Virus record (IMG/VR): IMGVR_UViG_2579778778_000001
Source: a virus
Taxonomy: Duplodnaviria; Heunggongvirae; Uroviricota; Caudoviricetes
DNA: 4,605 nt
Strand: one strand, 5' to 3'
Below the pieces are notes generated by a model, which was not told where the DNA came from, made no database searches, and saw nothing but the letters and a program-made list of their open reading frames with translations. A program made the position numbers and the translations under genes. Positions 1 through 4,605 of the stretch are shown piece by piece (position 1 is the stretch's first letter; each line of letters starts with the position of its first letter).

Positions 1-1997
1 CGGCAAAGAAATCCGAAACTGCAGCGGCATCATCGAAGAACGCGGCGAAAACCTCAGAAACGAATGCAGCTAACAGCGCACAGGCGGCAGCGACCTCACA
101 GACTGCATCGGCAAACTCCGCGACAGCAGCCAAAAAATCAGAAACCAACGCGAAAAACAGTGAGACAGCCGCAAAGACGAGCGAAACCAACGCAAAGTCC
201 AGCCAGACGGCAGCGAAAACCAGCGAAACGAATGCTAAAGCCAGTGAAACTGCGGCAAAAAACAGCCAGGTTGCAGCAGCCCAAAGCGAGAGCGCGGCAG
301 CCGGTTCTGCGACTTCAGCAGCTGGATCAGCAACTGCTGCGGCTAACAGCCAGAAAGCTGCGAAGACGAGTGAAACTAACGCAAAGTCCAGCCAGACGGC
401 AGCGAAGACCAGCGAAACGAATGCCAAAGCCAGTGAAACTGCGGCGAAAAGCAGTCAGGATGCAGCGGCTCAAAGCGAGAGTGCCGCAGCCAGTTCTGCA
501 AGCGCGGCGGCTGCTTCTGCCACTGCATCAGCTAACAGTCAAAAAGCAGCAAAAACCAGTGAAACCAACGCAAAGGTGAGCGAAACAGCGGCTGCGAACT
601 CAGCGAAAGCATCGGCAGCAAGCCAGACGGCAGCTAAAGCAAGCGAAGATGCAGCCAGAGAGTACGCAAGCCAGGCTGCGGAGCCGTATAAATATGTCTT
701 ACAGCCGCTGCCTGATGTGTGGATACCATTTAACGATTCGCTGGATATGATTACGGGCTTTTCGCCGTCATATAAAAAAATTGTTATTGGTGACGATGAA
801 ATAACGATGCCTGGCGACAAGATTGTTAAGTTTAAACGTGCATCGAAAGCAACCTATATTAACAAATCTGGTGTGCTGACAGAGGCTGCCATTGACGAGC
901 CACGATTTGAACGTGATGGCCTGCTTATTGAGGGGCAAAGAACAAACTACATGCTCAATTCGGAAAGCCCTGCCAGTTGGGGGCGATCGTCAAATATGGA
1001 TGTGCCCGAAACAGGGACGGATAATTTTGGTTTTACCTATGGAAAGTTTGTCTGCAACGATTCTCTGATTGGGCAAACCTCAGCCATTAATATGGCATCA
1101 ATTGCTGCAACAAAGTCAGTTGATGTCTCAGGCGATAATAAACACGTGACAACCTCATGTCGTTTTAAAACAGAACTGCAGGTAAGGTTGCGTATCCGGT
1201 TTGATAAATATGACGGTAGCGCAACAACTTTTCTTGGTGATGCGTATATTGATACACAAACGCTTGAAATTAATATGACAGGCGGTGCTGCCTCAAGGAT
1301 TACAGCGAGAGTCAGAAAGGACGAAGCTACCGGATGGATTTTTGCAGAGGCAACAATTCAGGCAATTGATGGGGAGTTAAAAATAGGCTCTCAGATACAG
1401 TATTCTCCTAAGCAGAGCGGGGCAACCGTATCTGGTGACTATATTTATCTGGCCACCCCACAAGTAGAAGATGGGCCTTGTGTATCATCTTTTATTATAT
1501 CAGGAGCGACGGCGGCGACCCGCGCAAGCGATATAGTTACAGTTCCAATTAAGAATAATCTTTATAATCTTCCTTTTACGGTTCTTTGTGAGGTACATAA
1601 GAACTGGTATAAAACGCCAAATGCAGCGCCACGTGTTTTTGATACCGGCGGTCATCAAACCGGAGCGGCTATTATTCTTGGCTTCGGTCGTTCAACAGAT
1701 TACGACGGATTTCCTTATTGCGATATTGGAGGAGCTAACAGACGGGTAAACGAAAACGCATCGCTTGAAAAAATGGTTATGGGGATGCGTGTAAAGTCAG
1801 AGCAGTCTACGTGCTCAGTAAGTAACGGGCATATATCCAGCGAAACAAAAACCACATGGTCCTGTATTCAGAACACCGCAATTATCCGTATTGGAGGCCA
1901 GACTACAGCCGGGTTACGTCATTTATTTGGTCATGTCAGGAATTTCAGAATATGGCACAAGGCATTGACTGATGCTCAGGTGGGGGAGTCAATCTAA
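1..1997 (+). CDS. stf: Side tail fibre protein, lambda Stf-like, 5'-partial (first full codon at nt 3; stop TAA 1995-1997). Repeat-rich Ala/Ser/Thr/Lys shaft, then a C-terminal putative receptor-binding domain with a LamG/ConA-lectin-like terminal motif.
   Basis: The frame of track ORF 576..1997 is open without stops back to nt 3. Translation of 3-660 gives repeats such as AKTSETNAKSSQTAAKTSETNAKASETAAK, which match from memory the AKTSETNA-type repeats of the lambda Stf N-terminal shaft. The track start at 576 is an internal GTG, not the true start. The C-terminus ends ...GLRHLFGHVRNFRIWHKALTDAQVGESI, resembling the terminal strand motif of LamG/ConA-like jelly-roll domains. It is followed by a coupled downstream gene (TAATG overlap). 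Confidence 0.85.
   Translation, partial: AKKSETAAASSKNAAKTSETNAANSAQAAATSQTASANSATAAKKSETNAKNSETAAKTSETNAKSSQTAAKTSETNAKASETAAKNSQVAAAQSESAAAGSATSAAGSATAAANSQKAAKTSETNAKSSQTAAKTSETNAKASETAAKSSQDAAAQSESAAASSASAAAASATASANSQKAAKTSETNAKVSETAAANSAKASAASQTAAKASEDAAREYASQAAEPYKYVLQPLPDVWIPFNDSLDMITGFSPSYKKIVIGDDEITMPGDKIVKFKRASKATYINKSGVLTEAAIDEPRFERDGLLIEGQRTNYMLNSESPASWGRSSNMDVPETGTDNFGFTYGKFVCNDSLIGQTSAINMASIAATKSVDVSGDNKHVTTSCRFKTELQVRLRIRFDKYDGSATTFLGDAYIDTQTLEINMTGGAASRITARVRKDEATGWIFAEATIQAIDGELKIGSQIQYSPKQSGATVSGDYIYLATPQVEDGPCVSSFIISGATAATRASDIVTVPIKNNLYNLPFTVLCEVHKNWYKTPNAAPRVFDTGGHQTGAAIILGFGRSTDYDGFPYCDIGGANRRVNENASLEKMVMGMRVKSEQSTCSVSNGHISSETKTTWSCIQNTAIIRIGGQTTAGLRHLFGHVRNFRIWHKALTDAQVGESI
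171..548 (+). repeat. In-frame tandem duplication of a 189-bp (63-codon) unit inside the stf shaft (copy 1 171-359, copy 2 360-548), with degenerate partial copies on both sides and a ~14-15 codon sub-periodicity.
   Basis: Direct comparison: gcaaagacgagcgaaaccaacgcaaagtccagccagacggcagcg at 171 versus gcgaagacgagtgaaactaacgcaaagtccagccagacggcagcg at 360 (offset exactly 189). The first ~100 nt of each copy are near-identical and the remainder more diverged. Protein units are AKTSETNAKSSQTAAKTSETNAKASETAAKNSQVAAAQSESAAAGSATSAAGSATAAANSQKA and AKTSETNAKSSQTAAKTSETNAKASETAAKSSQDAAAQSESAAASSASAAAASATASANSQKA. Confidence 0.85.
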
Positions 1998-2287: not shown

Positions 2288-3328
2288 ATGGCTACATCGA
2301 CAGTAATTCCTGATGACATCAAAACGCTAAAATCCGACGTTAGCAAATTAAAAAACGATCAAGGAAGCTACGCAACAAAATCTTATGTAGACAATAAAAC
2401 AACATGGAATGGTTATTGCAATGTAATCTATGATCAAAAAACATTGCCAACAACTGGAACTATATTCAGCGGTAAGCTGCATTTGTCAAATAAGACTGGT
2501 GAAACGGAAAACGCTTATAGTGACATATATACCAGAAAAAATATTGATGGTACTAAAGATACAATGACGAGGATCGTCACACATAACGGGACAAAAGGTA
2601 TCTTTTGGGACTTTAGTGATCTTTACGGAGGAACTTTAATTTTTCCAGGCAGTGATGGTTACCTTAAGATGGGGAACTGTCTCATGTCGTATGGTGTGCG
2701 GGGAAGTAACGCGCTTATTAAGTTTGATAATACAGACTCATTGCAGATCAAATATGCTAATCACGGGTCGACCATGACACTAAACACGCAAGGTACGGCG
2801 TATTCTGGTGTGTCGACGTTATTATGGGGAAATTCCAGCCGTCCTGTTGTTTATGAAGTCGGTGTTGATGGTGGCGCTTATATGTTCTATGCGCAGAAAA
2901 ATACCGATAACACCTATATGTTAAGCGTTAATGGTGCATGTCATGCCACCGCATTTAACCAGCATTCCGACCGGGATCTGAAAGACAACATTCAGGTGAT
3001 CGATAATGCAACCGACCGCATCCGTAAAATGAACGGCTATACATACACGCTTAAAGAAAACGGTATGCCCTATGCTGGTGTCATTGCACAGGAAGCTCTG
3101 GAAGCAATCCCAGAAGTTGTAGGTTCCGCAATGAAATATCAGGACGGTGCGAGCGGATCGGAAGGTGAAGAAGGTGAACGTTATTACACAGTAGATTATT
3201 CTGGTGTTACTGGCTTGCTTGTTCAGGTAGCCAGAGAGTCAGACGACAGAATAACAGCACTGGAAGAAGAAAACGCAGAATTAAGACAAAGATTATCTGT
3301 AATTGAGGCGGCGCTTGCGTCTAAATAA
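2288..3328 (+). CDS. Short tail fibre or tailspike-like protein (346 aa) with a C-terminal peptidase S74-type intramolecular chaperone auto-processing domain.
   Basis: GAGGAAG Shine-Dalgarno at 2277-2283, then ATG 2288. The C-terminal ~120 aa (from nt ~2966) carry the S74/endosialidase-chaperone hallmarks: Ser227 and Lys232 in NQH-SDRDLKDNI (Ser/Lys spaced i and i+5, as in the endosialidase CTD), then GYTYTLKENG, GVIAQEALEAIPEVV, YYTVDYSGVTGLLVQVARE and a terminal coiled-coil-like ITALEEENAELRQRLSVIEAALASK. The N-terminal ~226 aa are Gly/Thr/Asn/Tyr/Ser-rich and beta-like, typical of fibre tips. Confidence 0.85.
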   Translation: MATSTVIPDDIKTLKSDVSKLKNDQGSYATKSYVDNKTTWNGYCNVIYDQKTLPTTGTIFSGKLHLSNKTGETENAYSDIYTRKNIDGTKDTMTRIVTHNGTKGIFWDFSDLYGGTLIFPGSDGYLKMGNCLMSYGVRGSNALIKFDNTDSLQIKYANHGSTMTLNTQGTAYSGVSTLLWGNSSRPVVYEVGVDGGAYMFYAQKNTDNTYMLSVNGACHATAFNQHSDRDLKDNIQVIDNATDRIRKMNGYTYTLKENGMPYAGVIAQEALEAIPEVVGSAMKYQDGASGSEGEEGERYYTVDYSGVTGLLVQVARESDDRITALEEENAELRQRLSVIEAALASK

Positions 3329-3331
3329 TAT
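3303..3331 (+). promoter_or_regulatory. Candidate sigma70-like promoter inside the 3' end of the fibre gene: TTGAGG (3303-3308), 17-bp spacer, TAATAT (3326-3331).
   Basis: Pattern match only. The -35 is 4/6 and the -10 is 4/6 to consensus with ideal 17-bp spacing. A start near 3338-3340 would fall inside the 5' arm of the downstream hairpin. Confidence 0.2.
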
Positions 3332-3334
3332 TAA

Positions 3335-3357
3335 GGGGCCGAGCGCCCCGTTTTATT
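3335..3357 (+). terminator. Rho-independent terminator candidate: GGGGC (3335-3339), loop CGAGC, GCCCC (3345-3349), then G and TTTTATT (3351-3357).
   Basis: A perfect 5-bp all-GC stem followed immediately by a T-rich tract, starting 7 nt after the stop of the 2288..3328 CDS. The stem is short, so strength is uncertain. Confidence 0.55.
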
Positions 3358-3370
3358 GGGTAGGATGAAA

Positions 3371-3664
3371 ATGGATATAACACCTTTCCTTCATGCGCTT
3401 TGTGCTGTGGCTGCGCAGCTACTGATTGGTCTTTTTACCGGGAACTGGGCTTACGGGGCGATAGCCGGTTGTACGTTCTTCATTGCGCGTGAACACACCC
3501 AGGCAGAATATCGCTGGATCGAAATGTTCGGGCATGGCAAGCGAATGAATATGCCGTGGTGGGGCGGTTTTGATACACGTGCATGGGATGTGGCAAGCCT
3601 GATGGATTTTGCTGTGCCGGTGGTGGCGTGTCTGCTGGTCTGGCTGTTGGTTAATCGTGGGTGA
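3371..3664 (+). CDS. Small predicted inner-membrane protein (~98 aa from ATG 3371; alternative ATG 3365; track TTG 3356), two hydrophobic segments, function unknown.
   Basis: GGTAGGA Shine-Dalgarno-like at 3359-3365, 5 nt before ATG 3371. Hydrophobic stretches ALCAVAAQLLIGLFTGNWAYGAIAGCTFFIA and VASLMDFAVPVVACLLVWLLV flank a Trp/Gly-rich loop (MPWWGGFDTRAWDV). No lipobox or cleavable signal peptide evident. GC is visibly higher (~53% in a sampled line) than genes 2-3. Stop TGA 3662-3664. Confidence 0.65.
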   Translation: MDITPFLHALCAVAAQLLIGLFTGNWAYGAIAGCTFFIAREHTQAEYRWIEMFGHGKRMNMPWWGGFDTRAWDVASLMDFAVPVVACLLVWLLVNRG

Positions 3665-3674
3665 AAAAAGGTGA

Positions 3675-3803
3675 GCTGTATATGCAACGGAGGAAGAAAC
3701 CCCGTTGCTGGAAGCCTGGAAAAAGTATCGGATGCTGCTGAACCGTGTTGATACATCAACTGCACCTGATATTGAGTGGCCTACGAACCCTGTCAGGGAG
3801 TAA
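3675..3803 (+). pseudogene. tfa: 3' remnant (~41 codons) of a tail fibre assembly gene (lambda Tfa family); no start codon and no N-terminal part.
   Basis: The frame open from 3675 to TAA 3801-3803 translates to [42 protein letters not shown]. From memory this closely matches the C-terminus of lambda Tfa and E. coli prophage Tfa proteins (...[30 protein letters not shown]...). An in-frame TGA lies immediately upstream at 3672-3674, only 8 nt after the stop of the membrane protein gene. Confidence 0.65.
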
Positions 3804-3811
3804 TCATTGGG

Positions 3812-3881
3812 ATTATGCCGCAGCACGTCTTAAGCAAGACCATTATGCCGCAGAAACGTTGTATGCAATAACGTTCTGCGG
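3812..3881. repeat. Intergenic repeat cluster: 12-bp direct repeat ATTATGCCGCAG at 3812-3823 and 3842-3853, the second forming an imperfect inverted repeat GCCGCAGAAACGTT (3847-3860) / AACGTTCTGCGG (3870-3881) around a 9-nt spacer.
   Basis: Read directly from the sequence. The arms are complementary apart from a 1-nt bulge. No flanking T-tract on either strand, so not a classical terminator. Confidence 0.5.
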
Positions 3882-3888
3882 TTGGCTG

Positions 3889-3908
3889 ATGCACTTTCGA
3901 GAGTGCAT
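3889..3908. promoter_or_regulatory. Near-perfect 20-bp palindrome ATGCACTTTCGAGAGTGCAT (18/20 symmetric); possible protein-binding site or hairpin.
   Basis: Reverse complement is ATGCACTCTCGAAAGTGCAT, so two mismatches. It lies in the 380-bp non-coding gap between the tfa remnant and the convergent permease gene. Confidence 0.35.
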
Positions 3909-4045
3909 GTATTGAATTATTTCCAGCTATTATCGATTTTACGTATTTTTTGCATGAGAGAATTTGTACCTCCTCCCAACAACGACCTTCCATGACTTTC
4001 CGGACTTCTGTGGGCCAGCGGACGATGCTGCCCTCGGATGTTGTG

Positions 4046-4605
4046 CTAATTGGGTGATGACAAATCCTGTGTATGGGTGTTTCCCTTTGTGCGTGCGTTG
4101 ATGCTGGTAACGGTGAACGTCATGATGAACACAACCGCGAATAAGACGACAATCGTCGGAGCTGGTGCACTGTCGATAAAAAAGGACAACCAGACACCAG
4201 TCATTGACACTATTACCGATATGCCAATCGCCAGTAGGAGCGCAATATGAAAGCGTTGTGTCAGGAGTACCGCAATGGCGCCAGGCGCAATGAGCAGAGA
4301 AATGGAGAGAATGATACCTACCGCTTTCAGCGTCGCCACAATGGTCAGAGAGACCATGCACAGCAGCCCATAATGCAGACATCTCGTATGCAAACCGCTT
4401 ACCTGCGCCTGTTGATAATCAAAGCTGAACAGCAAAAAATCCCGCCATTTTACGCTAATAACAAGTGTAACCAGCCCGGCAATAATCACCGTCTGGATTA
4501 TATCGCCGATGGTTACCCCGAGCATGTCGCCGAAAAGAATATGGTCAAGATGTACGTCTGGTTTGACTGCAATATACAAGATCAGACCTGCGGCAAACAT
4601 GCCAG
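4046..4605 (-). CDS. ABC-3 family (ZnuB/MntB/SitD-type) metal ABC transporter permease, C-terminal ~185 aa; the 5' end of the gene lies beyond the window. Possibly a sitD-like Mn/Fe permease.
   Basis: Minus-strand ORF open to the window edge, stop TAG (revcomp of 4046-4048). The translation is multi-TM and aligns by eye with the C-terminal half of E. coli ZnuB as I recall it, including the LFGD-L-V motif (here DHILFGDMLGVTIGD) and the following helices. Assignment within the family is from context, not sequence. Confidence 0.8.
   Translation of the reverse strand, partial: GMFAAGLILYIAVKPDVHLDHILFGDMLGVTIGDIIQTVIIAGLVTLVISVKWRDFLLFSFDYQQAQVSGLHTRCLHYGLLCMVSLTIVATLKAVGIILSISLLIAPGAIAVLLTQRFHIALLLAIGISVIVSMTGVWLSFFIDSAPAPTIVVLFAVVFIMTFTVTSINARTKGNTHTQDLSSPN

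Follow-up and report, generated by a model that had tools for sequence, protein, structure and literature searches.

How did the 3′ end of a tail fiber assembly gene (tfa) come to lie alone behind a small membrane protein gene, and does it do anything there? The question is raised by a stretch of 4,605 nucleotides from a virus of the class Caudoviricetes (IMG/VR record IMGVR_UViG_2579778778_000001). We refer to this whole stretch as the window and use its coordinates throughout; features lie on the plus strand unless stated otherwise. A first-pass annotation, made from the letters alone, had read positions 3675 to 3803 as 41 codons of the conserved Tfa C terminus, left behind as the right-hand scar of a cassette replacement.

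Except for 30 bases described below, the window is base-for-base identical to Escherichia coli 13TMH22 (NZ_CP019256.1) and to many other genomes. The host prophage there belongs to the Rac family, is degraded, and occupies the Rac site of the chromosome (NZ_CP019256.1 positions 6300 to 19674, compared with K-12 Rac). Its trkG and ynaK genes are 99% identical to those of K-12, and uspF-ompN-ydbK follow on its downstream side. In place of the K-12 Rac interval from stfR codon ~117 through tfaR-pinR-ynaE-ynaM, to just before attR, it has a fiber cassette and the sitDCBA operon.

Results

Identity of the stranded tfa end

Translation of positions 3675 to 3803 gives 42 sense codons and a TAA stop (3801 to 3803). 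The frame opens immediately after an in-frame TGA (3672 to 3674) and 10 nt past the stop codon of the membrane protein gene (3662 to 3664), in agreement with the 8 to 10 nt given earlier. The peptide matches the Pfam family Caudo_TAP (PF02413; E = 1.9e-16) over profile positions 95 to 130 of 131, as well as several PHROG tail fiber assembly families (E values down to 3e-17). TBLASTN of Tfa proteins against the window, which had been proposed as a check, returned only the same C-terminal residues: 156 to 194 of the full-length PhiR26_1 protein (window 3684 to 3800; 94.9% identity, E = 1.4e-20) and 156 to 191 of K-12 TfaR (83% identity, E = 2.7e-15). No tblastn match to Tfa residues 1 to 155 (profile positions 1 to 94) was found in any frame of the window. 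The conserved C-terminal segment of the PF02413 family (profile positions ~95 to 131) is thus present, and the N-terminal part of the ~190-residue protein is not. At the DNA level, the remnant is 97.4% identical to the 3′ end of intact tfa over 156 nt. These matches lie far beyond chance and uphold the reading of the segment as a Tfa C terminus without its N-terminal region. The codon count was revised: only 39 of the 42 codons (3684 to 3800) are clean tfa, the first three (AVY, 3675 to 3683) being out of the tfa register. The remnant of tfa accordingly spans 3684 to 3803 and comprises the last 39 codons and the TAA of a gene for a lambda-type tail fiber assembly protein (Tfa residues 156 to 194).

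The remnant contains no in-frame ATG or GTG. The earlier statement that it lacks a start codon holds to that extent, with the qualification that an in-frame TTG at 3705 provides the sole mechanical start, opening a 32-residue open reading frame (3705 to 3803). A translatable tfa gene would have a start codon and ribosome binding site behind a Tfa-dependent fiber gene of the lambda or T4 gp37 type; here, the gene upstream encodes a membrane protein. The first-pass annotation had also expected ORF callers to miss the remnant. Most phage records do leave it unannotated, unlike RefSeq, in which the homology step of PGAP annotates exactly this segment as pseudogene BWI85_RS21830 (NZ_CP019256.1 locus positions 15684 to 15803, equal to window 3684 to 3803; "tail fiber assembly protein, incomplete, missing N-terminus"). 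With residues 1 to 155 absent, no ATG or GTG, an in-frame stop just upstream, and the pseudogene call, the claim of a truncation remnant rather than a gene is well founded. Judged from its sequence, segment 3684 to 3803 is a noncoding relic of tfa, not a functional gene, and it is presumably untranslated. Given the PGAP annotation and the K-12 orphan pieces tfaX and tfaD already catalogued in prophage DLP12, the kind of object is known: an annotated pseudogene, real but ordinary.

Breakpoint and junction anatomy

The breakpoint was mapped with three pairs of loci that differ essentially only by the fiber cassette. The first pair set the window locus (NZ_CP019256.1) against SPF_0923, a Salmonella/E. 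coli phage with a lambda-type stf gene and an intact 585-nt tfa followed by the same sitDCBA operon. The left match (lom plus stf nt 1 to 350) ended 26 nt before the start of the window, and the right match began at 3683, with 99.2% identity over 1.3 kb. In the second pair, PhiR49_1, which carries the cassette and the stub, matched PhiR26_1, which carries intact stf-tfa, from the same base (99.5% over 4.1 kb); both continue into ybcY, tfaX-like DNA, and ompT. In the third, HannyBb (cassette and stub) matched tfaR-pinR-ynaE-ynaM of K-12 Rac, again from the same base (98.9% over 1.9 kb). Intact loci matching both flanks were therefore available, and homology started abruptly inside tfa, at 3683/3684, in three of the three pairs, the pattern of a pseudogene made by module replacement. 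In-register alignments with SPF_0923, PhiR26_1, and K-12 tfaR showed mismatch noise up to 3683 and clean DNA homology from 3684.

Alignment with intact stf-tfa loci, as had been suggested, thus placed the breakpoint at 3683|3684, inside the interval of about 3665 to 3685 to which the right junction had been assigned. The description of the remnant as the right-hand scar of a cassette replacement was borne out by SPF_0923, which matches both flanks and retains intact stf-tfa. On the left, the replacement begins beyond the window, at stf codon ~117, where the conserved N-terminal domain ends.

The bases between the membrane protein gene and position 3684 suggest that the physical join may lie slightly farther to the left. 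They consist of an AAAAA spacer (3665 to 3669), read from the sequence, at the join of the membrane-gene module to tfa-derived DNA, and of 14 bases, GGTGAGCTGTATAT (3670 to 3683), which contain the in-frame TGA that closes the remnant frame. When aligned manually with GTTGAGCTGGAGATC from the tfa remnants of phages Ayreon and mEp460, these 14 bases gave 11 matches and one gap, and blastn carried the Ayreon match to window position 3672. Segment 3670 to 3683 is therefore probably a degenerate continuation of tfa with a 1-nt deletion. Because GGTGAGCTGTATAT resembles the tfa codons that precede this point in Ayreon and mEp460, the physical join may be the AAAAA itself, which also falls within the interval proposed earlier. 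The A run was 1 nt shorter in one IMG/VR copy of the junction. The native 3′ flank of the membrane protein gene was sought in distant homologues from Aeromonas, Comamonas, Pantoea, Silvania, and Leclercia, but the flanks there were unrelated, these homologues being too diverged to reveal it.

The fiber cassette and its relation to Tfa

The side tail fiber gene stf occupies window positions 1 to 1997, with its 5′ 378 nt outside the window (RefSeq coding sequence 11622 to 13997 of NZ_CP019256.1). Ala-rich repeats (1 to ~700) are followed by a distal domain unlike that of lambda. Part of it (window ~920 to 1530; residues 308 to 508 of the partial protein) matches the RcGTA phage head spike fiber domain (NCBIfam NF048003, E = 2.4e-13) and PDB entry 6TB9, the Rcc01080 protein of the Rhodobacter capsulatus gene transfer agent (E = 1e-7). 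By these matches, the distal domain is a receptor-binding fold different from that of lambda Stf. The Ala-rich shaft contains internal direct repeats (156 to 417 versus 345 to 608; ~81% identity, offset 189 nt). Elements of the IS3 or IS1 family interrupt stf in some genomes that are otherwise identical (H1, H13, and H14).

Overlapping the stf stop codon (ATGA) is orf93 (1997 to 2278; phrog_1361, function unassigned), a conserved partner that always accompanies the new stf distal domain and is present in phage 21, PhiR49_1, HannyBb, and E. ruysiae. Searches of Pfam, NCBIfam, and PDB gave no match to its product (the PDB sequence search returned noise), and a single-sequence AlphaFold model was unusable (mean pLDDT, 47.7); we regard orf93 as a candidate fiber chaperone or adaptor. 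It is followed by a second tail fiber gene encoding 346 residues (2288 to 3328; phrog_4563) with a C-terminal Peptidase_S74 domain (PF13884, E = 6.3e-14). This second gene is an optional one: HannyBb has it, as does the window, whereas PhiR49_1 has a shorter version and phage 21, Lambda_2E9, and PhiR49_2 have none. The DNA of its S74 region is 74 to 77% identical to that for the C terminus of the one large Stf encoded in Ayreon and mEp460.

In the complete phage 21 genome, the only trace of tfa is a 20-codon piece at the same junction. Together with the gene transfer agent spike-like distal domain of Stf and the S74 domain of the second fiber, this suggests that Tfa can be lost and would be dispensable for the fibers of this cassette. 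Lambda PaPa, which lacks stf and still grows, shows that side fibers are dispensable for growth; that phage 21 is viable is therefore no proof that its side fibers assemble. Because the fibers of the new module belong to types expected to do without Tfa, we propose that the remnant has no chaperone role.

The membrane protein gene and a possible small peptide

The gene adjoining the remnant (3371 to 3664) encodes a 97-residue small membrane protein (phrog_1443, function unassigned; PHROG E = 2.8e-58), to which the phage 21 annotation gives two transmembrane domains. Homologues with 53 to 63% identity occur in Aeromonas, Comamonas, Pantoea, Silvania, and Leclercia, and no tfa stub adjoins them. 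A terminator scan detected an intrinsic-terminator-like hairpin (3335 to 3349) with a T run (3335 to 3357 together) between the second fiber gene and the membrane protein gene. IMG/VR prophage contigs retrieved with a 21-mer across the junction, together with phage and genome loci carrying it, made up 92 loci, and in 52 of the 92 upstream similarity to the window ended at about 3363 to 3367, just 3′ of this hairpin. The pairing of the membrane protein gene with the stub was more constant than that with any gene upstream, and the pair travels with several different fiber genes. With a terminator-like hairpin in front of it, the membrane protein gene looks like a separate cargo unit (a "moron").

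Could the remnant nevertheless be a small gene, whose 32-residue peptide, begun at TTG 3705, acts as a mini-chaperone or competes with resident Tfa proteins? The mechanical ORF exists, a GGAGG (3689 to 3693) sits 11 nt before the TTG, and most remnant copies keep the frame open to a stop. However, intact tfa has both the GGAGG and the TTG within its ordinary coding sequence (TEEETPLL), so that neither is a specific signal, and the apparent conservation of the remnant is explained by its recombination with intact genes (see below). Viable phages carry stubs cut to 20 codons (the phage 21 type, which ends at 3740), cut at 3781, or fitted with other 3′ tails, and frameshifted copies exist. The intrinsic terminator upstream of the membrane protein gene also argues against expression, as does a promoter scan of 3250 to 4100, which found no promoter-like site. 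We consider a functional small gene very improbable and retain the reading of a noncoding relic.

Distribution and age of the junction

An 81-mer spanning the junction (3645 to 3725) was present at 95% identity or more in at least 1,705 of 5,426 complete E. coli genomes (~31%), among them CFT073 and BL21 derivatives; in all, the 5,426 genomes hold ~2,330 or more copies. The membrane protein gene lay directly upstream in all 92 retrieved loci carrying the 21-mer. The junction is also carried by viable, plaque-forming phages (21, 2G7b, ev243, PhiR49_1, HannyBb, and Tritos). Apart from local decay, all copies examined had one junction sequence, which points to a single origin. Since homologues of the membrane protein elsewhere lack the tfa stub, the distribution fits import of the membrane protein gene and a junction formed once, in the lambdoid pool of Escherichia.

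This distribution bears on whether the replacement took place in this very prophage, as a recent local event in a Rac-family element beside sitABCD. The position of the locus at the Rac site, with the interval from stfR codon ~117 to just before attR replaced relative to K-12, is what such an event would leave. Against it, the identical junction occurs in those 1,705 or more genomes at several chromosomal sites and in up to four copies per genome, in phages and prophages with other integrases and cargo (phage 21, which integrates at icd; a dusA prophage; HannyBb), and, as a membrane gene-remnant pair, behind several different upstream fiber genes. We rejected a local origin on this basis and regard it as extremely improbable; as far as sequence comparison can tell, the scar is old and widely shared and not the record of an event in this prophage.

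The few apparent exceptions were examined and discarded. In L133 (IMGVR_UViG_2563366942_000013), TGAGCTGTATAT is preceded by GTTCAG, as might be expected of an ancestral intermediate, but the arrangement is an insertion: an IS3-family element lies exactly at the junction of membrane protein gene and tfa stub (3671 to 3673) with a 3-bp target duplication. Genomes H183 and H184, which seemed to carry the membrane protein gene without the remnant, both proved to contain decayed fragments. In the literature searched, neither this junction nor a tfa remnant of phage 21 or of phages with sit genes was described, and tail fibers go unmentioned in the genome announcement of phage 21.

Crossovers within the remnant

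What follows the single junction differs among copies: at least three unrelated contexts (sitDCBA, ybcY-ompT, and pinR-ynaE) were seen, and a version of each, ~99% identical, is found after an intact tfa. To the right of the junction, the contexts share only the tfa 3′ end and ~20 to 36 nt past its stop codon. Because this patch is all that they share, the cassette, on the comparative evidence, must have moved by homologous crossovers inside these ~100 to 150 bp of remnant. The alleles agree with such movement. Compared with the intact tfa of the same context, each remnant differed at two to five sites within 3684 to 3735 and was identical from about 3736 on, including context-specific tails (e.g.,...PALP* in the pin context). 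Some 110 stubs and 65 intact genes showed the same assortment of C-terminal and 3′ tail alleles, and two 120-nt sequences were shared exactly. Variable sites fell at codon positions 1, 2, and 3 in numbers of 13, 10, and 17 in the remnants and 8, 8, and 15 in the intact genes, a comparison confounded, like the synonymous and nonsynonymous counts made to gauge selection on the stub, by recombination of the remnants with selected intact copies. Recombinants between lambda and Rac are known to cross over in stf and, in one-third of cases, in the tfa region of 95% identity (De Paepe et al., 2014; PMC3945230).

A Din-family DNA invertase (Pin, Gin, or Cin), acting at its crossover site, could have made the junction and moved the cassette instead of homologous recombination. 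Invertase genes do adjoin tfa in some contexts (pinR in Rac, a DNA invertase in HannyBb), and in one other type of orphan tfa junction the immediate neighbor is a truncated invertase gene. The crossover site, which we take to be a 26-bp imperfect palindrome with the core AAACC-NN-GGTTT, was sought with the consensus AAACCNNGGTTT; this weak test gave no match in the window at up to two mismatches or in the 28.6-kb locus at up to one. No invertase gene lies near the sit and ybcY contexts, and the gradient of single-nucleotide differences across the remnant is the expected product of homologous crossovers. Although a passage of the De Paepe et al. article (PMC3945230), citing Sandmeier, proposes invertase-driven exchange of stf genes, we give an invertase origin of this junction next to no credence and favor homologous crossovers.

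Crossovers in the remnant raise the further question of whether selection has kept it as a dedicated recombination "linker" for swapping host-range cassettes. The remnant is demonstrably used for crossovers and persists in viable phages, and IMG/VR prophages contain at least five different truncation junctions that keep the last ~100 to 190 nt of tfa. A census of tfa 3′ ends, however, sees only those events that kept the 3′ end, an ascertainment bias under which no preference is shown. Furthermore, phage-21-type phages keep only 57 nt of the remnant, each context has its own trimming of the 3′ end, and it is hard to show that second-order selection of this sort has acted. Selection as a linker is thus unlikely, and the stub would more simply be a passive right-hand homology arm, not selected for that role.

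Sequences downstream of the remnant

Downstream of the remnant, alignment identified native post-tfa sequence common to loci with intact tfa and with the remnant (3804 to 3823). The 30 private bases that are the only difference from NZ_CP019256.1 follow at 3824 to 3853 (equivalently 3812 to 3841), bounded by a 12-nt direct repeat, ATTATGCCGCAG (3812 to 3823 and 3842 to 3853). They create a hybrid of two alleles of the post-tfa hairpin, in which the left arm and loop of the ybcY/DLP12 allele come first and the sit-context copy then resumes. No copy of the hybrid was found in 5,426 complete E. coli genomes, IMG/VR, PLSDB, or JGI metagenome contigs; either prophage copies underwent a private ectopic recombination or the hybrid is an artifact of assembly.

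The hairpin itself, CCGCAGAAACGTT...AACGTTCTGCGG (3848 to 3881), is stable (fold z = −3.0) and lies downstream of tfa. In the allele of the ybcY context, both arms are changed, the stem is kept, and a T run follows. The hairpin is probably the terminator of the late or fiber operon. A scan of the window with Rfam 15 gave no match at the gathering score.

The 3′ part of sitD lies beyond the hairpin on the minus strand (4046 to 4605; RefSeq annotation). It belongs to the sitABCD iron/manganese transporter operon, a prophage cargo, and is 97.8% identical to sitD of phage 21. The operon is a known common cargo of lambda phages of the infant gut (PMC6969025). Phage-21-type sit phages (21 and Lambda_2E9) lack window positions 3741 to 4025, with a 5-nt overlap, TGCTG, at the join (phage 21 positions 7950 to 7954), and this loss leaves a tfa stub of only 57 nt there. 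A 136-bp block (3864 to 3999) lies on the sitD side here and on the sitA side in phage-21-type phages (phage 21 positions 11599 to 11730; 86% identity). The sit operon therefore occupies two positions relative to this block.

Discussion

We propose the following account for the remnant's identity and breakpoint, the one junction sequence in the copies examined, and the multiple contexts with context-matched 3′ alleles, all of which are established here at the level of sequence comparison. In an ancestral lambdoid phage, illegitimate recombination would have joined the end of a foreign module, which now ends in the gene for the 97-residue membrane protein, to tfa ~117 nt before the stop codon, removing the lambda-type distal part of stf and the first ~155 codons of tfa. 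Most E. coli prophages have an intact tfa, and what was left would be a short patch that nearly equals the 3′ end of those genes. With the conserved stf 5′ end and lom as the left arm and the remnant as the right arm, the whole cassette could then swap among lambdoid phages and prophages, and homologous swaps would have put the same scar beside sitDCBA (here), ybcY-ompT (DLP12-like), and pinR (Rac-like). Taken whole (tfa relic, origin by illegitimate recombination, Tfa-independent fibers, and passive homology arm), we hold this account to be very probable.

The closest relatives of the remnant are lambda Tfa and K-12 TfaR, TfaQ, and TfaE (PF02413), to which its last 39 residues are 83 to 95% identical and its DNA 97% identical, with the same native post-tfa sequence; it differs in lacking residues 1 to 155, a start codon, and the cognate lambda-type stf distal domain upstream. 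The K-12 DLP12 orphans tfaX (61 residues) and tfaD (beside a fragment of aaaD) are likewise C-terminal tfa pieces stranded by prophage rearrangement, and tfaX-like DNA matches window positions 3684 to 3758 at 83%; the window remnant differs from them in its truncation junction, at the membrane protein gene, and in its downstream context, sitDCBA.

Orphan tfa 3′ ends are also found in Ayreon, in mEp460, at the invertase-fragment junction, and elsewhere in IMG/VR, and in these, too, the same terminal ~100 to 190 nt were kept after replacement of the fiber gene. They differ in their neighboring genes, with an S74-type fiber upstream of the remnant in Ayreon and mEp460, and in their breakpoints, which lie 12 to 60 nt farther upstream or 27 nt farther downstream. 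At least four further independent orphan tfa 3′ ends were observed in IMG/VR, in classes with, e.g., 39, 90, 177, or 66 nt of open frame upstream of the motif. Of these four, one is the join to a truncated invertase gene, one is the Ayreon/mEp460 type behind an S74-type stf, and two have breakpoints 40 to 60 nt upstream of that in the window.

As in the lambdoid mosaicism described by De Paepe et al. (2014; PMC3945230), exchange here has as its limits conserved sequences at the stf 5′ end and the tfa 3′ end. The differences are that the right-hand homology is a pseudogene stub of ~100 to 150 bp rather than a full gene and that exchanges were deduced from comparison, not measured. Accepted ideas of phage mosaicism are thereby confirmed rather than changed, and the feature itself matters little. 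What the locus adds is an exact breakpoint, one old shared junction, and comparative evidence that a stub serves as a recombination arm.

The stub might instead be a maintained "docking sequence" for cassette exchange with tfa-bearing prophages or, less likely still, encode a 32-residue peptide that interferes with resident Tfa; we judge this distinctly unlikely beside a passive arm. If the docking reading were true, phages that swap in Tfa-independent fibers would keep the last ~100 nt of tfa and thereby preserve cassette exchange. In either case, a fixed junction in ~31% of complete E. coli genomes marks a widespread tail fiber module that is seemingly Tfa independent, and the mismatch gradient across the stub is nucleotide-level evidence that host-range cassettes move by homologous crossovers within ~100 to 150 bp. 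The junction may thus be of use in tracing the flow of fiber modules and in choosing homology arms for engineering side tail fibers.
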